Sequence record: NC_103192.1
Reading direction: 5' to 3' (one strand)
Source: a phage
Length of the DNA: 64,000 nt
Position numbers and translations under genes: made by a program. Below the pieces are notes generated by a model. That model had not been told where the DNA came from, did not search any database, and saw only the letters and a program-made list of their open reading frames with translations. Of the stretch, positions 5,106-42,689 are shown in pieces; the first letter of the stretch is position 1; each line of letters opens with the position of its first letter.

Positions 5106-8100
5106 ATGAGCATGTATAGCTTCGATTTTGAGGCCTCCGGGCTTTTGGAAGATCCAGATCTTTATTATCACTGCGGCCTGTTTAAAGAGCTGAATAAGAA
5201 CCGTTTTATGCTGTTCCTCCCTCTAAATGACCGCACACACTACTCCGAGGAGGATATAGAGAAGGCTAAGAACTTTATTCTGGCAAAGAAAACTCTTTAT
5301 AAAGATTTTGAAGTTCGCATAGCAGATTTTTCAGAGTTGGAAGGTTGGCTTACAGGCAATTCTGACTGGTCACCAACAGCTTTGAACTGCCATAACTGCT
5401 ACAGTTATGACTTTATGCTGATGGAGAGATTATCCGGTATTCATTTTGATATGTTCCGTGATCCTAAATGCATGGGTACTATCAACGATCACCAGGTTAA
5501 CCTGTTTGATACGTTGGCGATGAGCCGAATCTTGTGGCCTGATCGCCCTTTACCAAAAGGTTGCCCGGACGCTGTATTCAACCCGGTTACTAAGAAAATG
5601 CAGCCTGTTGGTCCTCACGGCCTTATGGCATGGGGCTACGCTCTTGGTAACCAGAAAGTTCAAATTGATGACTGGCGCGATCTTCCGCTGTGGAAGTATG
5701 TGGATCGTGTATTTGAGGACGTTATCATCCAGGAGCTGCTCTGGAAAGAGCTAGTAGCGGAATCAAAAGGTGTATTCTACGGCAAATCTGACATGCAGAA
5801 CTTCATGTATGACCCTGCCAAAGAGAAGCCTAAAGGATTCAAGAAGATTACCTGGAAGAATGCATTACGCCGAGGCATGCTGCAGCACTTCCTGATGGAG
5901 CTGCAGGCCCGTCAGGGTGTGTATTTCGACATAGATGGGGCTATTGCTTTACGTGACCGTTGCGATGCGTGGATGAAAGAGATCGCTGATCGTGTTGAAC
6001 CTCAACTCCCTTTAAAAGAGTTGTCAATATCTCAGCGGCCCAAGTTCCCTGAAAAGCCGTTTAACCAAGATGGGACAATCTCCAATAATGGTTGGAAATG
6101 GTTAAAAGATAAGCTTGGCTACCCTGTGGACATGAGCGCTTTAGATTTCAAAGCCCCACCTAAGCGAGCATTTACCTCCACAGGAGATGTCAGTAAGATG
6201 GGGATAAAATGGTGTGAAGAGATGGGCTGCAAAGACCCCGATAAGATGGCTGCTTTCTTGAGAGGCTATATTAAGGGCACTTCCACACCACAACCTTTAC
6301 CTAAAGAGCTGATGGATCAGGCAATAAGTGATCTACAGCAGAAGCGAATGCCTGACTGCAAGATACCTATGAAAATCAGCAATCAGGACGACATTAAGCG
6401 ATACCTGATCAGTGCTGGTTGGCTTCCGACAATGTGGAGAACTAAGGATGTAACTAAAGACAGCAAGAAGAAAGCTCTACCTGATGCAGATGTTGATGCA
6501 CGAGTATATGCATATATGGACGAGCTTTTAGAGTCAGAGTATTGTGACCTAATTATCAACTTCTGGAACAAAACTGATGCTAAGTTTCAGACAACAGTGC
6601 ACAAGTTCCGAAGCTTTCCTAACTCCGAAAGGATTAAAAAGGAAGTATTCGGGAAAATACGCAGAAAAGCTAGGGCACTTATTACTTCCCCGCAACTGAA
6701 AGATACGTTTGGACACCTATGCCCGAATCTTGAAAGATTGAACGGAGAGATGGCTAAAGATATCGTCTTGTGGTTATCATTGCGAAACCGCAGATCGGTA
6801 CTTGATCCAATCAAGGAGGATAAGGTTGATACTGGTCTTCTTAATCACCCACGTTTGAAGATTGACCATAAGCTTCCTGCTAAAAGCTCTGGATTAACAA
6901 ACACTTCCCGACAGAAACACAGTATTTGTGCAAACATGCCTAAACCATCTCCTAAAGTGGTTATGGGTAAAGAGATGCGTAGTCTGTGGGGTGTTCCTCC
7001 AGGATACTTTGAGATCGGTATTGACGGGTCTAACTTGGAGCAGCTTATCGGGGCTTGGGGTGCCTTTGAGTTCGACAACGGCCTGTATTACGATGTTGTA
7101 AGTAACGGCGATGCACACTGTTATTCAGGAGATACACAAATTCTCACGGAGAAAGGGTGGGTGAGGTTTGAAGATCTTGATCCGGGAACACAAGTGTTCC
7201 AGTACGATCACAACACCTCGTCGATGAACCTTGTTACTCCATTAAATTACGTTAAGCGTAGTTATTGTGGGGATATGTATCATTTCCACAACAGCGGTGT
7301 GGATTTTATGGTTACAGATCAACACAGGATGCTGACCGTGGATCACAGAAGCAATAAATTGTTTGAAGATTTGGCAAAAGACCTGAAAGCAGGTAAAGGG
7401 TCTAATTCAGGAAGAAGGTTTATCCATGCGGCAGAGTTTTATGGGAATACAACCTTATCTCCTGCCCAGGTTAATTTGCTTATTGCTATTCACGATGATG
7501 GGCACTTGCATACAAATAAGGACGGCAGCATCGTGTGCAGGATTCAGGTCGGGAAGGGCAGAAAAGTTGCAACGCTTTTAGATACTTTTTCTGCTCTAAG
7601 CCTTAGTTATGTAGAGCAGAGCGGGAAAACCACAAAAGGGGGCTTACTGGCGAGAAGGTTCCAATTCCACGTTCCGTCCTGGGTATTTGAGTTTTTGGAC
7701 AGCAATAAGGATTTCACCTACAACCTGATGGACCTTGATAAAGAATCTAAAAACCTGTTTATAGCTTCTTTATCTAACTGGGACGGGTGGGTATCTTCCG
7801 AAGGTGGAAAAGTTGCCTACTACTCTCAGGCCGAGTGCAGGAAGAAATCTGTAGAGGTTGTGTCTGCGCTGGCTACTCAGTGTGGTTTACGGAATAATAC
7901 GGTAGCGATTCACAAAAAAGGTCGTTCCGTACAGCACAGAATCACGATTGGTAGCAAACAGAGAGCAGGGTTGCTGACACTATCTAAAGAGTCTGTCGAG
8001 GTGAGCGGTTCTTTGGTTTATTGCGTTACCGTCCCTTCTGGAGCAATCATTGTGAGAAGGAATGGTAAAGTGGCAGTGTGCGGTAACTGTAATAACGCCA

Positions 8101-8498
8101 AAGCTTACTCTTCTGTAGCAGGCAAGGAGATTTCCCGTAACGATGGTAAGCCTGTCACGTACGGTGTTATGTACGGGGCACAAAAAGATAAAGTTGCAGA
8201 TATGCTGGACATCTCTCCAGAGTTGGGACAAAGGGTAATCGATGCGCTTTGGGATGCCAACCCCGGTCTTAAGGGGCGTAAAGAGGATCTGGAGAAATTC
8301 TGGGAAGCAACTGGTAAGAAGTTTATCTACTCTTTTGATGGTCATGCCATCTGGACCCGATCTAAACACTCTTTACTTAATGCATACCAACAAAATGGTG
8401 GTGCATCGTTGTGTGACTTAGTTGGGATACTCATGCACCACCAAATGGTGAAGCGTGGGTGGTACGATGAAGGTGTTCGCCGTATTATCTATTACCAT
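5106..8498 (+). CDS. family A DNA polymerase, exon 1 (contains intein 7119..8087)
   Basis: 3'-5' exo motif FDFEASGL; Pol A motif A IGIDGSNLEQ and motif B RNDGKPVTYGVMYGAQ flanking intein; ORF stop 8502..8504 lies in intron. Confidence 0.85.
7119..8087 (+). mobile_element. intein (about 323 aa) with LAGLIDADG-type homing endonuclease-like insert, in DNA polymerase between motifs A and B
   Basis: N-terminal block CYSGDTQILTEKGW, C-terminal ...VYCVTVP...VCGN followed by +1 Cys; internal LLIAIHDDGH and LFIASLSNWDGW dodecapeptide-like motifs; exteins rejoin to ...SNGDAH|CNNAKAY... matching T7-like spacing. Confidence 0.75.
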
Positions 8499-8826
8499 AA
8501 ATAACATTGTGGCTTCGTGCAGTGATGCACGTCGAAAACCTCTTTAATTGACGGGAAGGCTAAGTTGACTTTTACACCTAAACATGGTAAAAGCTCGATA
8601 TGCTAATCCGCAGCGAAGCATCCGAGAGGATGAACGTTCAGAGACTATCGAAAGCATAGCTCCAGCATAGTTTGGTGTGAAGAAGCGAGTAGAGTAGGCC
8701 AGCAAGTGCGGTCGAAATGAGAGGTGCCTTGGTAACAAGGCAGTGAGATAGTCCGATCCATACGGGAAACTGTATGGCTATGCACGTAATGGTGCGGGGT
8801 AGCTTAACGACCTACCTGAACTATTG
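8499..8826 (+). ncRNA. group I self-splicing intron (no ORF) in DNA polymerase motif C
   Basis: Exon ends on U (..YYH, cat) with IGS-like GUGG at intron nt 10-13; core elements P-like ttgacgggaagg, Q-like aatccgcagcg, R gttcagagactatcgaaagc, S gagatagtcc; terminal G at 8826; splicing restores YYHDEYQLQV (Pol A motif C HDE). Confidence 0.75.
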
Positions 8827-9180
8827 GATGAGTACCAACTTCAAGTACCTGACACACCGAAGTATAAGACTGTGTACACCTTCGACACAATCGAAGAACT
8901 GGAAGCATTTAAGGCAGAGCAGGAGGCCAAACTTCATGTGTTCGACGGTCATAAGTACAAAAAGGCACGCAAGGATGAGGACGGAAACGAAGTGGTTGAC
9001 AGAGACGGAAACACGGTGTACGATCCTATCCTGAACGATGACGGAAAGCTTGAACTTATCTGGAGCCCTGTGGGTGAAATGGTGGTGCATTGCTTCTGGC
9101 AAGCTTCTAAAATGATGGGCGTCCCATTCCAGATCACAGGTGAATACTTGTGTGGGGCTAATTGGGGTAGTTGTCACTAA
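8827..9180 (+). CDS. family A DNA polymerase, exon 2 (C-terminal 117 aa)
   Basis: Begins DEYQLQV completing motif C; ends ...GANWGSCH, which I recall as resembling the T7 DNA polymerase C-terminus. Confidence 0.8.
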   Translation, partial: DEYQLQVPDTPKYKTVYTFDTIEELEAFKAEQEAKLHVFDGHKYKKARKDEDGNEVVDRDGNTVYDPILNDDGKLELIWSPVGEMVVHCFWQASKMMGVPFQITGEYLCGANWGSCH

Positions 9181-9229
9181 TGTAAACTATCAACACATGG
9201 AAGTGTTGTTGAGCAAAGAGGAGACTTTT

Positions 9230-9514
9230 ATGGTAGTAGAACCAACAAAAACATTTACATCCATGACTATCCCTGTTATTATGCAGGTGGAGTGTGTTCA
9301 GGTATCTCAAGTGTGGCCTGGCACTAAAATCCCAACAGGGCCTGATTTCTTTCAGGTTGGGAAAGTGTATAATGTCTGGAAGGCACCAGATTGTTACCCT
9401 TTCATTAAAGATGACCGTGGGATGCTGTGGTATCTTGGAAATGATTTGACACTGCACCTTGGGAATGCTATTATTGCAGTATTCAGACTTAACAAGAAGG
9501 AGACCGATCAATGA
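9230..9514 (+). CDS. hypothetical protein (paralog family KDdxGxxWfl)
   Basis: ATG after AAAGAGGAG RBS; shares IKDDRGMLWYLG motif with next two genes. Confidence 0.55.
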   Translation: MVVEPTKTFTSMTIPVIMQVECVQVSQVWPGTKIPTGPDFFQVGKVYNVWKAPDCYPFIKDDRGMLWYLGNDLTLHLGNAIIAVFRLNKKETDQ

Positions 9515-28618: not shown

Positions 28619-29038
28619 ATGAACATTAAATCTAATAATCCGGCATATAGCTTTGATAACGCTTTTTGTCACGGTCCGGCGGCGAAAGGATTCGAAATCG
28701 ATGGTAAACTAATTATTGTCAATGTTGACGGGGAAGAGGTTGCAGTATATCCGGTGGCAGACGTTAAAAGCCGTTTGCAATGCCGCATGGATGTTACCGC
28801 CTACCAGCTTGATCCGGTCCGCATAGTTGCCCTGGTCCTGGAGGAAGAGATCAAAGCAATGCACCACAGCAACAAGTTTATTGGTGACGCTCAAGATAAT
28901 ATGAAGGTGTGCCGCCATAAAGTTAATGAAGTGCTTAAAGAATATGGCTTTAAAGATCTGATGATCAAACGTGAGGAAAAATTCCGCTACCGTAACGACC
29001 TGGCAAATCGGATTTTTGAAATATACGAATCATTATAA
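28619..29038 (+). CDS. hypothetical protein
   Basis: RBS TAAGAGGTAAAAA. Confidence 0.6.
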   Translation: MNIKSNNPAYSFDNAFCHGPAAKGFEIDGKLIIVNVDGEEVAVYPVADVKSRLQCRMDVTAYQLDPVRIVALVLEEEIKAMHHSNKFIGDAQDNMKVCRHKVNEVLKEYGFKDLMIKREEKFRYRNDLANRIFEIYESL

Positions 29039-29057
29039 TTTCTTAACTGAATTATCA

Positions 29058-29086
29058 AGGGGCTTAAAGGCCCCTTTCTTTTTGTC
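29058..29086 (+). terminator. rho-independent terminator closing plus-strand block
   Basis: aggggc-ttaaag-gcccct + TTCTTTTTG. Confidence 0.65.
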
Positions 29087-29639
29087 TGCTCTTCTCCTAC
29101 CATAAACGGCCCCACCCGGCAAGTGGAATAATTGACTAGCCAGCAATTGCCTGCACTGTACAAACATACAGGTAAAATAGTTATTGCATAACCTTTCATT
29201 GTGTGGTAGCAGTGCCATTTTTACACGTTTTTCCTTCCAAAATTGCACGTAATGCCGCTATTGCATAAATTTTAACCTGATGCATATCTTCAATATCTTG
29301 TCAACAACTAAAAATCTTTATAAGTCATACACTTACACCACCACAAAAGCGTGTTCTACGTGAAAAATCGGGTGTAACTATAGCCGCCAGATCTCAGAAT
29401 TTACGTACGCTCACCAGTCTATAGCCTGCTAAGTATTTATTCCAACCATAGAATAACGGAATAGTCAATACCTGCATAAAATAATTATTCGTGTAAACTG
29501 CATAACATAAATCAGCCAGGGTGTCAACATTTTTCGTAAACATCTCGAAATTATCACGATGAGTTATCATAAACAGAGAAATCTTTAGTCGTCTAATGTT
29601 TACTGTACATTACTATACTGGCTGGAATCATTAGATGAC

Positions 29640-30140
29640 TAAGAGAAAGATAAGAAATAGTTAACAATGTAATTGTTTTACCTGTAACAATAAGGCAACT
29701 ATGCAAACGAATGGCATGGCGCGACGGAGTCGCGACATAATATAAAAGCAGTAACCATCACCCCCGTGATAGTTTGTCTGCAAACTATTAATCAGATCAT
29801 AGTTGCCTTGTAGTTAGTTAATCATGACACAATAAGCAAGGCAACTATAGATCTGCTAATAGTTGCCCTGCTTTTATATTATGTCATAGAAACACCCGAA
29901 GGGGTGACCGAAGGTCACCTGGCCTAGCCAGTGAAAGATTATTAACTTGTTAATTGTTAACTTGCTAATTGTTTTCATGCAAACGAATGTCATGGCTTAT
30001 CATATCTGCGTGAACAGTGAAACATGGAAATGATAAATATGTGAACAGTTATCCATGTAAACTATTAGACATGCAAACAATCAGGTGTGCAAAAGTGACA
30101 TAGTATGTCACCAGTATGTCATAGTATGTCAGACAAGTTT
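29640..30140. repeat. repeat-dense non-coding region (alternating GGCAACTAT/ATAGTTGCC sites, palindromes, short direct repeats)
   Basis: GGCAACTAT at 29695 and 29840, inverted at 29792 and 29862; palindrome GGTGACCgaaGGTCACC about 29905; gcaaacgaatg(g/t)catggc x2; ttaacttg(t/c)taattgtt x2; agtatgtca x3. Confidence 0.5.
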
Positions 30141-31616
30141 TTCTCCTCTTTGTCAAGTGCTGCATGGAAAATTTACAAACTGGTATGGTAGCATTTTTGC
30201 GGCCCTGTTTACATTCAGGAGTGTATGTATAATCCTTGTTGTGTGGGCGTTTAGACGTCTGGACGGTCAGAAGTCCGCAGGTTAATATCTAATCTATTGG
30301 TTGCTAACTATATCCCACACAAATAGTAAGAAATATAATTGTTATATGCGTAAACAGTAACTCATGTTATCAATCCATGTATGGATCGCCAGTGGTGCGC
30401 ATAATGGGTATTATGTTAAATTGCCCGTAATGATAACCATTCCCACAATGATAGGTATTCTCATTCACCCCCACAAGATAGGTTGCAAATGTTGTGCCAC
30501 TGTGTGAACGGCCTCACCTATTAATTTGCCCCACTGCCTCGATATTTGAGAATTGTTATAAGAATGAGAAGTATTCCCATTCCGTCCGCCTGGCAGCACT
30601 CCAGTCGCTAACGCTCTCGGGCTGAGAGCTATGCTCGATGCTACCGGCTCCTGACAGGGAGGCACTCCTGTAGGACAGGTCAAAATCGGGGCATAACTGG
30701 ACCCCCCTTCAGATATTTCTGGCTGACTCTTCAGGTCTGTGTGGGAAAAGCCAACCTCTCCGGCAGAGGGGAGGGGGTCAATTAAAAAATTTACGTGGTG
30801 TATGAAGCGCTCTTCAGGCAAGGTGTGTATTATGGGAGGAATCACTCTTCAGGTGATGATATTTGTGGGTGTGATATTTGCTGGAAAGCCAGATATGACG
30901 GGACTCCCGGCGGGGCAGGGGTAGTACAGACAGGGAAAATGTGGAGAATGTGGTGGGTAAATTGATCAGGCAGGTAGAGTATGAAATATGTTACAGGTAT
31001 GTTAAATATGGAGGGTGAATATCTGTAAGATTTGTGTGTAAAATCAAAGACTTAAGTGGTGTTGTGGTATTTTCTATAAATAATTCAAGTTTAATAGGTA
31101 ATATTTGTCTCTATCCACTTTGTGTGGTAACCAGATTCAGATGAAATTGGTTTACAAGTGTATACATAATATACAAATTAAAGATACAAGAAACCCCCCT
31201 CCCCCTTCGGCTACCATTCACCTTTTCCTCTGACTGGTACTTAAACACTTATTCAGACTCTTCAGGTTATCACCCATATATCATATGGCAGTGACTGGTG
31301 TCCTCCGGCCCCTCTTTCGTCACCCGTCCGCTTCGCCATGCTAATGCCATAGCCAAAGGTTCGGTTGTTCACCCTGTTCACTCAGGTGTATCTCCATACC
31401 CCTTCAAACCGAAGAGAACAGAAAACCCGAATTACTCGGTAAAAGAAAAGAGAAGAACTTAATTTTATCAGGATAGGCAAGAATGTCAAGGCATGACTGC
31501 TCACTAAACAAGCAAACAGTCATGTGTGGGAGGTAAGTGATTGTGGTGGTAGGAAATTTAGTTGAAAGATGTGTTATAGGTGCTTCCAGCACTTTAGCCG
31601 GGCAGCTAATTGTGTG

Positions 31617-31832
31617 TCAGTCCAGCGGTTCATCTACTACTTCACTGAAATCAATGTTCAGAGTCTCTTCCCAACCATCGATCTCAGCACAAGAGTGGAG
31701 TTCTTTAGGGTTTACTCCCAAAGCCTCAGCAACAGAGTCTATATTTAACACCTCTGGCAGGTATGATTCATCGAATTCAAGGTAAATCAGGCCACGAGTG
31801 TTGTCAGCTCCACCAAATATTTCTATCTTCAT
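31617..31832 (-). CDS. hypothetical small acidic protein (EIVEE-tail paralog family)
   Basis: RBS AGGAG; MKIEIFGG start and acidic C-terminus like array members. Confidence 0.55.
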   Translation of the reverse strand: MKIEIFGGADNTRGLIYLEFDESYLPEVLNIDSVAEALGVNPKELHSCAEIDGWEETLNIDFSEVVDEPLD

Positions 31833-31952
31833 AAAATCTCCTCTGGAAATGAGAGTGTGAACAGGGTTATACGTTCCAATGCACTGGAATTTATATACGT
31901 TTGCCTCTTCAGGCCATGCTTTAGCATGATAAACTTGTGTGGGCTCGGTACT

Positions 31953-32366
31953 TCATAGTCTGCCACCTCTGAACTCTTCGTTCTCAGGCATGATAGAGAA
32001 CCAGATGGCTATGATGTCCTCCCACGTCAGGTCATCAGCCTCAGGATCTACCTGGAGCGAAGATGGAGAATCTTCAGAATTGAAGTTTTTCTCTTTCACT
32101 GTCTCAGCCAAGGGACATATAGTCACTCCTTTGGATGCCTCTTCAGATGCATGTGTGTTTATCATGTTCCACCCGTGAGTATTCCGGCAACAACTGCTAT
32201 GGACGTAATGATCATCAGGATCACCACCAAAACCTCTGACAATGTTTTCATTGTGCGCTCCATATTCTCCAAATGATGTGTGGATACTATCACAGGAGCG
32301 GTAATGTGTCAACAGAAACGCCGCGAGGGTTTGGTTAAAATCCGAGCGTATGGTGATTTGGGTCAA
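31953..32366 (-). CDS. hypothetical His/Cys-rich protein (start uncertain)
   Basis: ORF from track; no convincing RBS. Confidence 0.3.
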   Translation of the reverse strand: MTQITIRSDFNQTLAAFLLTHYRSCDSIHTSFGEYGAHNENIVRGFGGDPDDHYVHSSCCRNTHGWNMINTHASEEASKGVTICPLAETVKEKNFNSEDSPSSLQVDPEADDLTWEDIIAIWFSIMPENEEFRGGRL

Positions 32367-42290: not shown

Positions 42291-42689
42291 TTACTGAACA
42301 GAGCGCGGTGCTGGGAAGGATAACTCTTCTAAAGAGAAGATTTCATTTCCTACCACCCAAGTTGCTGGGTCATCTGGATCAACAGGTTGGACAATCATTA
42401 CCTCATCCGCCTCGCACACACGTTTCCCACCCATAGTAGCGTCAGCCACTAACATACGCGGCTCTTCAGAAATGCACAGGTAGCCACCTCGGCCCACTGT
42501 TCCTTCCACGGGATCCTGCCCTTTGACCACAATGAATACCTTCTCTCCTGTGGAGATATTACTTTTCACACTAACAGTTTGACCAACTTTAGATGTACCG
42601 ATCTTGGTGGCTTCAAACATTAAATCCCGAATTACTGTTGCATAGTTGCCGGACACTTTCTTACCTTCTTTAGTAATCTCAATCTTCAT
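42291..42689 (-). CDS. hypothetical protein
   Basis: RBS AAGGAG. Confidence 0.6.
   Translation of the reverse strand: MKIEITKEGKKVSGNYATVIRDLMFEATKIGTSKVGQTVSVKSNISTGEKVFIVVKGQDPVEGTVGRGGYLCISEEPRMLVADATMGGKRVCEADEVMIVQPVDPDDPATWVVGNEIFSLEELSFPAPRSVQ

Follow-up and report, generated by a model that had tools for sequence, protein, structure and literature searches.

Why should a phage keep some 2.5 kb of gene-free DNA, dense in repeats and palindromes, between two convergent gene blocks? The question is raised by a 64,000-nucleotide stretch of phage DNA (record NC_103192.1; the whole stretch is referred to as the window), in which such a gap extends from 29040 to 31616. A first-pass annotation made from the letters alone had flagged 29090-30300 as a candidate origin or regulatory hub, and had named replication origins, packaging sites and injection-stop or terminal-repeat boundaries as settings in which such a density of repeats is typical. 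Comparison with related phages indicated that the gap is probably the region of the genome ends (the concatemer junction), holding one copy of a 459-bp direct terminal repeat (DTR). By homology, the flagged interval corresponds to the DNA just inside one virion end together with the first 169 bp of the DTR.

Sequence matches identified the source phage as a Vequintavirus, an rV5-like myovirus of ~137 kb. The 2.7 kb around the flagged interval matched 121 phage records at 90-95% identity; all were Vequintavirus, and 97 of the 121 covered at least 80% of the query. The window was then aligned with 16 relatives (17 genomes in all), the set to which the within-genus figures below refer unless another is named. 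The DTR was placed at 30132-30590 (GACAAGTTTTT...CCGTCCGCC). It contains no open reading frame (ORF), was 92-97% conserved and aligned without gaps. The Gotham record carries annotated 459-bp repeats at both ends, and both copies aligned exactly to 30132-30590. The HdK5 record begins at the base equivalent to 30132. Altogether, six GenBank records from several laboratories start or end at the equivalents of 30132 and 30590 only. One copy of the DTR was present in the window.

Read-based work on LL12, Gotham and HdK5/EdH4 has placed a 458-459-bp non-permuted DTR in this gap (PMC6658697, PMC7471380, PMC6563267). Terminal repeats of 459 bp with an identical start sequence in all virions are given for Gotham (PMC7471380) and redundancies of 458 bp for HdK5 and EdH4 (PMC6563267); fixed read starts and twofold coverage of the repeat are reported for LL12, Gotham, HdK5/EdH4 and KPP-1. 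Klebsiella phage KPP-1, a Mydovirus of the same subfamily, has a 514-bp DTR classed by PhageTerm as T7-type (PMC9862379). Homology to these read-mapped relatives fixes the position and the boundaries of the DTR in the window. Its left end, at 30131/30132, falls within the flagged interval and directly after a triple AGTATGTCA, and among the options of the first-pass annotation it was the terminal-repeat boundary that was borne out.

The core identity of the locus, a gene-free gap holding the Vequintavirus DTR, is already published. The published DTRs share locus, sequence and boundaries with the one described here. A keyword look-up in the rV5, LL12, Gotham and HdK5/EdH4 papers gave length and position only, and returned no description of the motif at the cuts, the phased copies next to it, the hypervariable arrays of short repeats, the palindrome with its covarying stems or the ultraconserved transcript set out below. 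In Shigella phage CM1 (L003 3100-4100) the DTR occurs twice in tandem, probably the product of assembly through joined ends. Two "hypothetical protein" coding sequences are annotated in CM1 across the duplicated non-coding DNA.

The gap was gene-free throughout, in keeping with the first-pass statement that no ORF with a credible ribosome-binding site lies between 29090 and 31600, and conserved protein-coding genes were looked for at the locus in relatives and not found. Nineteen ORFs (37-126 aa) occur in 29040-31616; none was both intact in the 16 relatives and biased towards third-position substitution. The neighboring gene at 31617-31832 gave the coding-like pattern of 34, 23 and 105 substitutions at the three codon positions. 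The longest ORF (126 aa; 30465-30845) was rejected as a gene: it had no Pfam match and was broken in all relatives. Depositors have annotated 13-15 tiny ORFs here in Mangalyan and MiataMamis; since no ORF is intact across relatives with a third-position bias, these annotations are not credible. In the 2013 rV5 paper the stretch is drawn as a grey "non-coding" box without ORFs. The features reported for 29090-30300 were real, and the interval itself was an arbitrary cut through the larger unit 29040-31616. The sister-clade locus L009, described below, has in its otherwise gene-free gap an HNH_3 homing-endonuclease ORF (8716-9486, plus strand; Pfam E 1.6e-18), so the gap tolerates mobile insertions.

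The convergent setting was likewise as first described. On the left, the rightward block ends with a 139-aa homolog of rV5 ORF164 (28619-29038, plus strand; phrog_12277, E 6e-96); on the right, the leftward block ends with a 71-aa homolog of rV5 ORF163 (31617-31832, minus strand; phrog_12108). Both are small proteins without assigned function, and they face each other as the ends of two convergent transcription units. An intrinsic terminator found by a terminator scan (AAGGGGCTTAAAGGCCCCTT followed by a T-run; 29057-29086, plus strand) closes the rightward block and is annotated as a terminator in Murica.

Both ends of the DTR carry a short motif. The left cut-site motif (30127-30134, plus strand), aligned to the Gotham ends, reads TGTCA^GAC, and the extended form TGTCA^GACAAG was invariant in the 17 genomes. 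The right motif (30588-30595) reads TGCCA^GGC on the minus strand and is the inverted counterpart of the left one; on the top strand the junction is CCGTCCGCC^TGGCAGC. Variants of the right motif, TGCCT in rV5 and TGCTA in Mangalyan and KPP-1, keep the same pattern. The junctions of KPP-1 were recognisably homologous (TGCTA^GAC on one strand and TGCTA^AAC, the counterpart of the left motif, on the opposite one) around a repeat whose interior was unrelated. The four sites of this genus and KPP-1 thus share TGYYW^RRC, in inverted orientation on opposite strands, and sequence comparison finds both junctions conserved across genera. This polarity would fit T7-style staggered nicking and fill-in: nicks at TGYYW^RRC sites would leave an extendable 3'-OH, as the staggered-nick model requires.

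To the left of the DTR, three AGTATGTCA repeats occupy 30102-30131 (plus strand; at 30102, 30113 and 30123), spaced 10-11 bp apart and ending exactly at the left cut. The relatives contained two to five phased copies, the last of which forms the TGTCA^GACAAG junction. Outside these lie hypervariable arrays of short direct repeats (29921-30101), made of TTAACTTGyTAATTG units and GTGAACAG / ATGyAAAC units of ~15-31 nt. Unit number and sequence varied among isolates, with 43-57% column identity and 23-39% gaps, compared with more than 90% identity on either side. The arrays include TTAACTTGyTAATTGT twice at 29943-29973, and a 20-nt repeat, ATGCAAACGAATGnCATGGC, is found at 29701 and 29977 (95% identical). 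The left copy of the latter is termed R1 (ATGCAAACGAATGGCATGGC; 29701-29720, plus strand) and its partner R2 (29977-29996); a similar duplicated repeat flanks the palindrome of L009. The direct repeats listed by the first-pass annotation (ttaacttg.taattgtt twice, gcaaacgaatg.catggc twice, and agtatgtca, here AGTATGTCA, three times) were all found, to within a few bases.

Two overlapping, mutually exclusive GC hairpins (29893-29919) stand next to the arrays and were present in about half of the relatives. One, CACCC-GAAG-GGGTG, is terminator-like on the minus strand; the other, GGTGACC-GAA-GGTCACC (29903-19), is a perfect palindrome, as had been reported. The second palindrome reported as perfect, GCGCGAC with GTCGCGAC, was perfect over 6 bp only (CGCGAC-GGA-GTCGCG; 29720-34).

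The right junction (30591-30700) begins with 20 conserved nucleotides (TGGCAGCACTCCAGTCGCTA) and continues with hypervariable GC-rich hairpin modules (59% GC overall). Identity in 30600-30700 was 24-65%, with up to 68% gaps, so that hypervariable, indel-rich stretches lie directly outside both cuts. A 34-nt insertion at about 30611-30645, outside the right cut, has its own hairpin (GCTCTC-GGGCT-GAGAGC) and was private to the window among the 17 genomes.

A similar layout was found in an uncultured sister clade (clade 2), represented by locus L009. Here an end that reads TTGACAAAAAGAG...TTTGTT, similar to CTTGACAAAGAGGAG...CTTGTC in the window, is followed by three phased copies of AGGCATACT, which abut the putative cut at the equivalent place. 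The putative repeat measures ~667 bp.

The flagged interval also contains a compound palindrome at 29734-29885, delimited by repeat search and folding and ~97% conserved in the genus, with few disruptions. Its outer stem is a perfect 18 bp (29734-51 / 29868-85). This stem encloses a side hairpin looped by CCCC (29757-29771) and an inner stem of ~35 bp (29783-29810 / 29837-29864) built from GGCAACTAT/ATAGTTGCC arms. Whichever strand was taken, and whether it was folded as RNA or as DNA, the segment 29680-29925 had z-scores of -7.5 to -9.4; none of 200 shuffles folded as well. Four copies of GGCAACTAT in alternating orientation, with one pair separated by eight nucleotides, had been noted, and they were recovered at or near the positions given: 29694(+), 29799(-), 29840(+) and 29859(-), all within 174 bp, the spaced pair being GGCAACTATAG-N8-ATAGTTGCC at 29840-29867. 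The 64-kb window contained six copies in total against 0.55 expected, a number reached in none of 100 shuffles. The palindrome encloses three of these four copies; the copy at 29694 is just outside and can pair with that at 29799. The GGCAACTAT copies thus belong to a single hairpin-forming element, as arms of its stems, and are not independent sites.

Counterparts of the palindrome were found in three other lineages. In L009 the perfect stem is 17 bp long (GACATAATAACGCTGAG) and the CCCC hairpin is compensated; in L010 the perfect stem is 15 bp long, with an AACTAT...ATAGTT core. Both elements are as far from the conserved flanking gene as the palindrome of the window. The perfect stem of KPP-1, of 21 bp, lies ~300 bp from its repeat, on the same side. 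Since the stem sequences differ while complementarity stays perfect, selection would act on the structure rather than on a sequence motif. Covariation of the stems in L009, L010 and KPP-1 establishes at the sequence level that the structure is conserved across lineages.

Together these elements suggest how the ends may be formed. Concatemers would hold one copy of the DTR, the linear virion DNA having it at both ends. In a T7-like scheme, the terminase would make two nicks, one in the top strand at TGTCA^GAC (30131/30132), the other in the bottom strand at TGCCA^GGC (30591/30590). The 3'-OH of each nick would be extended through the DTR by DNA polymerase with strand displacement, giving both daughter ends a full copy. 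The phased AGTATGTCA copies at the cut and the neighboring arrays might serve as a zone of protein loading or recognition. The palindrome, 250-400 bp inside, may form a hairpin or cruciform in the DNA when ends are processed or during replication, rather than provide operators. We infer the nicking polarity, the binding of proteins and the role of the palindrome; that the flanking repeats are cis-acting signals for concatemer processing or packaging is the most plausible interpretation.

The closest analog appears to be the T7 concatemer junction, which has a 160-bp repeat, SRL and SRR arrays of short repeats, the phiOL and phiOR promoters/origins, and a hairpin intermediate in repeat duplication. 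The T7 junction resembles the gap in a short exact repeat, arrays of short imperfect repeats on both sides, a promoter that reads toward the junction and, to one side, an inverted repeat. There is no sequence similarity. The present phage is a 137-kb myovirus with convergent blocks, whereas the T7 map is co-linear; its promoter is of the host sigma-70 type, T7's of the phage-polymerase type; and ~1 kb of non-coding DNA lies on each side of the repeat. KPP-1 is alike in its gene-poor gap between convergent blocks, its homologous cut sites and its large palindrome on the same side. It differs in that the repeat interior and the palindrome sequence are unrelated, and its other flank is only ~335 bp long and lacks the conserved transcript.

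An injection-stop signal of the T5 type, another of the settings named at first, did not fit. In T5 the signal is part of a terminal repeat of ~10 kb that carries genes, and two-step injection is not known for these phages. The gap does resemble the T5 first-step-transfer boundary as a repeat- and palindrome-dense non-coding stretch near a genome end, with DnaA boxes in one relative (L009). Unlike that of T5, the repeat here is only 459 bp long and gene-free.

Several points weigh against a genome-end function for the gap and its repeats. The termini of this phage are inferred from relatives, and the boundaries were taken from the reports of others, which differ by 1 nt (458 or 459 bp). The cut-site symmetry consists of a degenerate 8-nt motif at four sites only. 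The variability of the arrays makes sequence-specific recognition there doubtful. FV3 (L012 1250-1270) lacks 29721-29996 through a clean deletion exactly between R1 and R2, and with it the GC hairpins, some of the arrays and the compound palindrome; unless the loss arose in cloning or assembly, at least one propagated isolate can thus do without the palindrome and those arrays. DnaA boxes in L009 point to a replication role of the region in some relatives.

The most conserved stretch of the locus lies outside the flagged interval, to the right of the DTR. A strong sigma-70 promoter at 31462-31489 (minus strand) has TTGACA, a 16-nt spacer and TAAAAT with a TG extension, matches the consensus at 11 of 12 positions, and points to the DTR; it was the best promoter of the region. 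Downstream, 31195-31455 (minus strand) is a candidate novel structured non-coding RNA (ncRNA) of ~261 nt, bounded by a pyrimidine tract at its 5' end and a G-run at its 3' end. Identity was 97.5-100% in the 16 relatives over 31200-31499, and 98-100% in 118 GenBank records over 31180-31520. In comparison with the most diverged vequintavirus, no other stretch within 12 kb had so high an identity; flanking genes had 80-95%. The comparisons show a separate unit, non-coding and led by a promoter, on which constraint is unusually strong.

Outside the genus, ncRNA homologs were found in clade 2 only, within which they were nearly invariant. Searches of IMG/VR, metagenomes and GTDB (pattern scans, then nhmmer) for further lineages yielded only Vequintavirus and this one sister clade; the other pattern-scan matches were seed-only chance matches. 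Clade 2 retains both promoter hexamers. Relative to that clade, indels of 5, 2 and 1 nt break any reading frame, which rules out coding. The versions of the two clades each fold with a closing stem that joins the 5' pyrimidine tract to the 3' G-run. The 5' hairpin is fully compensated (CCGA/UCGG in one, CCAGAA/UUCUGG in the other), and in 12 of 72 pairs both partners differ. In locus L035 resemblance to the window breaks off immediately beyond the G-run. The folding z-scores were modest (-1.7 to -2.3) and the comparison spans two lineages only; the evidence for a conserved structure is suggestive.

Rfam, searched first with the gathering threshold and then with E values up to 10, and ARAGORN gave no credible match of the candidate to an RNA family, transfer RNA or transfer-messenger RNA (best E 0.9-6, far below the cut-offs). 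Mimicry of a host sequence was rejected, as the ultraconserved block had no match in 5,426 E. coli genomes. A hammerhead ribozyme was considered for a CUGAAGA that resembles the core CUGANGA, and was likewise rejected: no hammerhead model scored and there was no stem II/GAAA context. A search of the literature on vequintavirus transcriptomes or ncRNAs found nothing relevant.

What such an RNA might do is a matter for tentative suggestion. It could conceivably act at the genome ends, as an R-loop or primer RNA of a transcription-dependent origin beside the DTR or as a cofactor of end processing or packaging, with the palindrome as its DNA partner; we regard this as a rather unlikely proposal. 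Two systems offer a parallel: the phi29 pRNA is a structured RNA encoded near the genome end and transcribed toward it, and ColE1 RNA II is a promoter-driven G-rich RNA upstream of AT-rich DNA. The candidate resembles them in layout only, with no sequence or Rfam similarity, and the phage has a conventional terminase. KPP-1 has no ncRNA homolog, so the ncRNA is not generally required for making such ends.

Among the other explanations, a replication origin fares best. In this account the AT-rich flanks, the arrays as iterons and the palindrome would form the origin, possibly together with a terminus function; in one variant, the promoter-driven G-rich transcript of 31195-31455 would prime replication through an R-loop, as at T7/T4 origins or with ColE1 RNA II. 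The secondary origins of T7, phiOL and phiOR, also flank the terminal repeat. Repeat arrays and a palindrome are present, and the lowest GC contents of the window (35-36% in 29077-29680 and 29921-30131, compared with 42.8% window-wide) occur here, a nonspecific sign. The replication proteins are T7-like: the window encodes a family-A polymerase, and the rV5 paper names a gp4-like primase-helicase. Both clades keep the strong conserved promoter followed by a G-run and then AT-rich DNA, and the homologous clade-2 gap has, inside its putative terminal repeat, a 40-bp stretch (L009 7845-7884, minus strand) with three perfect DnaA boxes (TTATCCACA). The corresponding search of the gap in the window found no cluster and no perfect box, and one box with one mismatch. 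Against an origin stand the hypervariability of the arrays in number and sequence, the deletion of palindrome and arrays in FV3, and the complete absence of the conserved transcript from KPP-1. GC skew was rejected as a marker, since its switch coincides with the change of gene orientation and is uninformative; the authors of the rV5 paper sought the origin by skew analysis and found switches only where the direction of transcription changes. On balance an origin is unlikely, although it may coexist with the genome-end function that we prefer.

Hairpins between converging genes could instead serve as a buffer, acting as bidirectional terminators or roadblocks between the two transcription units or before the DTR. 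The gap does lie between convergent blocks, and six terminator-like hairpins, against 2.9 expected, were counted there, including those at 29057 (+) and at 29906, 29774, 30769 and 31439 (-). The rV5 authors expected bidirectional terminators here and found none. The large palindrome has no T-run on either side, 2.5 kb at 90-100% conservation far exceeds what termination needs, and the phased repeats next to the cut and the cross-genus covariation of the stem would be left unexplained. Such a buffer is improbable as the function of the gap.

The repeats were first described as operator-like; on an operator reading, the GGCAACTAT inverted repeats would bind a dimeric phage regulator of nearby promoters. 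Four exact 9-mers in 174 bp in alternating orientation invite this reading, and a small gene resembling a transcription regulator (phrog_639) lies 3.5 kb off. No predicted promoter adjoins the sites: none within the flagged interval was a convincing sigma-70 promoter, and the region as a whole had 13 predictions against 10.8 expected. The copies are accounted for as arms of the palindrome, the fourth having its complementary arm inside. CAACTAT was not enriched in L009, L010 and L029, which keep the palindrome with other sequences, and the sites are deleted in FV3. We consider an operator cluster very improbable and did not retain that reading. Decayed coding DNA or an assembly artefact, to which the 13-15 tiny ORFs of some depositors might be taken to point, can hardly be entertained for a gap that is common to 121 independent genomes, has no ORF with coding-like substitutions and is in parts more conserved than the flanking genes.

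A genome-end region at this locus has consequences for how these phages are recorded. Most GenBank vequintavirus records, including those of rV5 and of the phage studied here, are written as if permuted, with the true ends buried in the gap; the rV5 paper describes the genome as circularly permuted. Placing the DTR at 30132-30590 would fix the genome start and would explain the spurious tiny ORFs and tandem assemblies such as that of CM1. It also marks DNA to keep intact when these therapeutic phages are engineered or rebooted. To our knowledge, T7-type end formation has been studied almost only in T7 and T3, and the anatomy described here (TGYYW^RRC sites, phased repeats, arrays and a covarying palindrome) provides testable handles on such ends in a large myovirus. 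The conserved promoter-led transcript would, if expressed, be a new phage ncRNA.

The remaining parts of the gap are two flanks. The left flank (29077-29680) is AT-rich non-coding DNA (35.9% GC), 84-98% identical in the genus, with no conserved ORF and a weak 70% match in the clade-2 locus L009. The right flank (30701-31194, minus strand) is conserved, has a partial 74% match in L009, and contains CTGAAGAG motifs at 30727, 30810 and 30845, often after CCCACACA.

Both motifs recur elsewhere in the window. CTGAAGAG had 12 copies against 2.4 expected, all on the minus strand: six in 30.7-32.2 kb (30727-32146) and the others at 42462, 47855, 49035, 57228, 58095 and 13775. It often follows C(C)CACACA by a few to 25 nt, and some copies lie in 5' untranslated regions just before the ribosome-binding site. 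A similar CACACA...CTGAAG module is found in the flank of KPP-1. CCCACACA had 14 copies against 2.2 expected, mostly co-oriented with transcription (for example, 10339, 22972 and 27848 on the plus strand; 30240, 30738, 31523 and 31936 on the minus strand). Typically a start codon follows 20-35 nt downstream of it, and in some places a GC hairpin has the motif as its 3' half; it may mark transcript starts or serve in processing.

Far from the gap, a group I intron (RF00028, 73.7 bits; 8489-8776, plus strand) interrupts the family-A DNA polymerase gene, whose ORF (5106-8504) resumes near 8774. The window appears to be without an HNH homing endonuclease at this intron locus, where FV3, Phage 203 and others have one.

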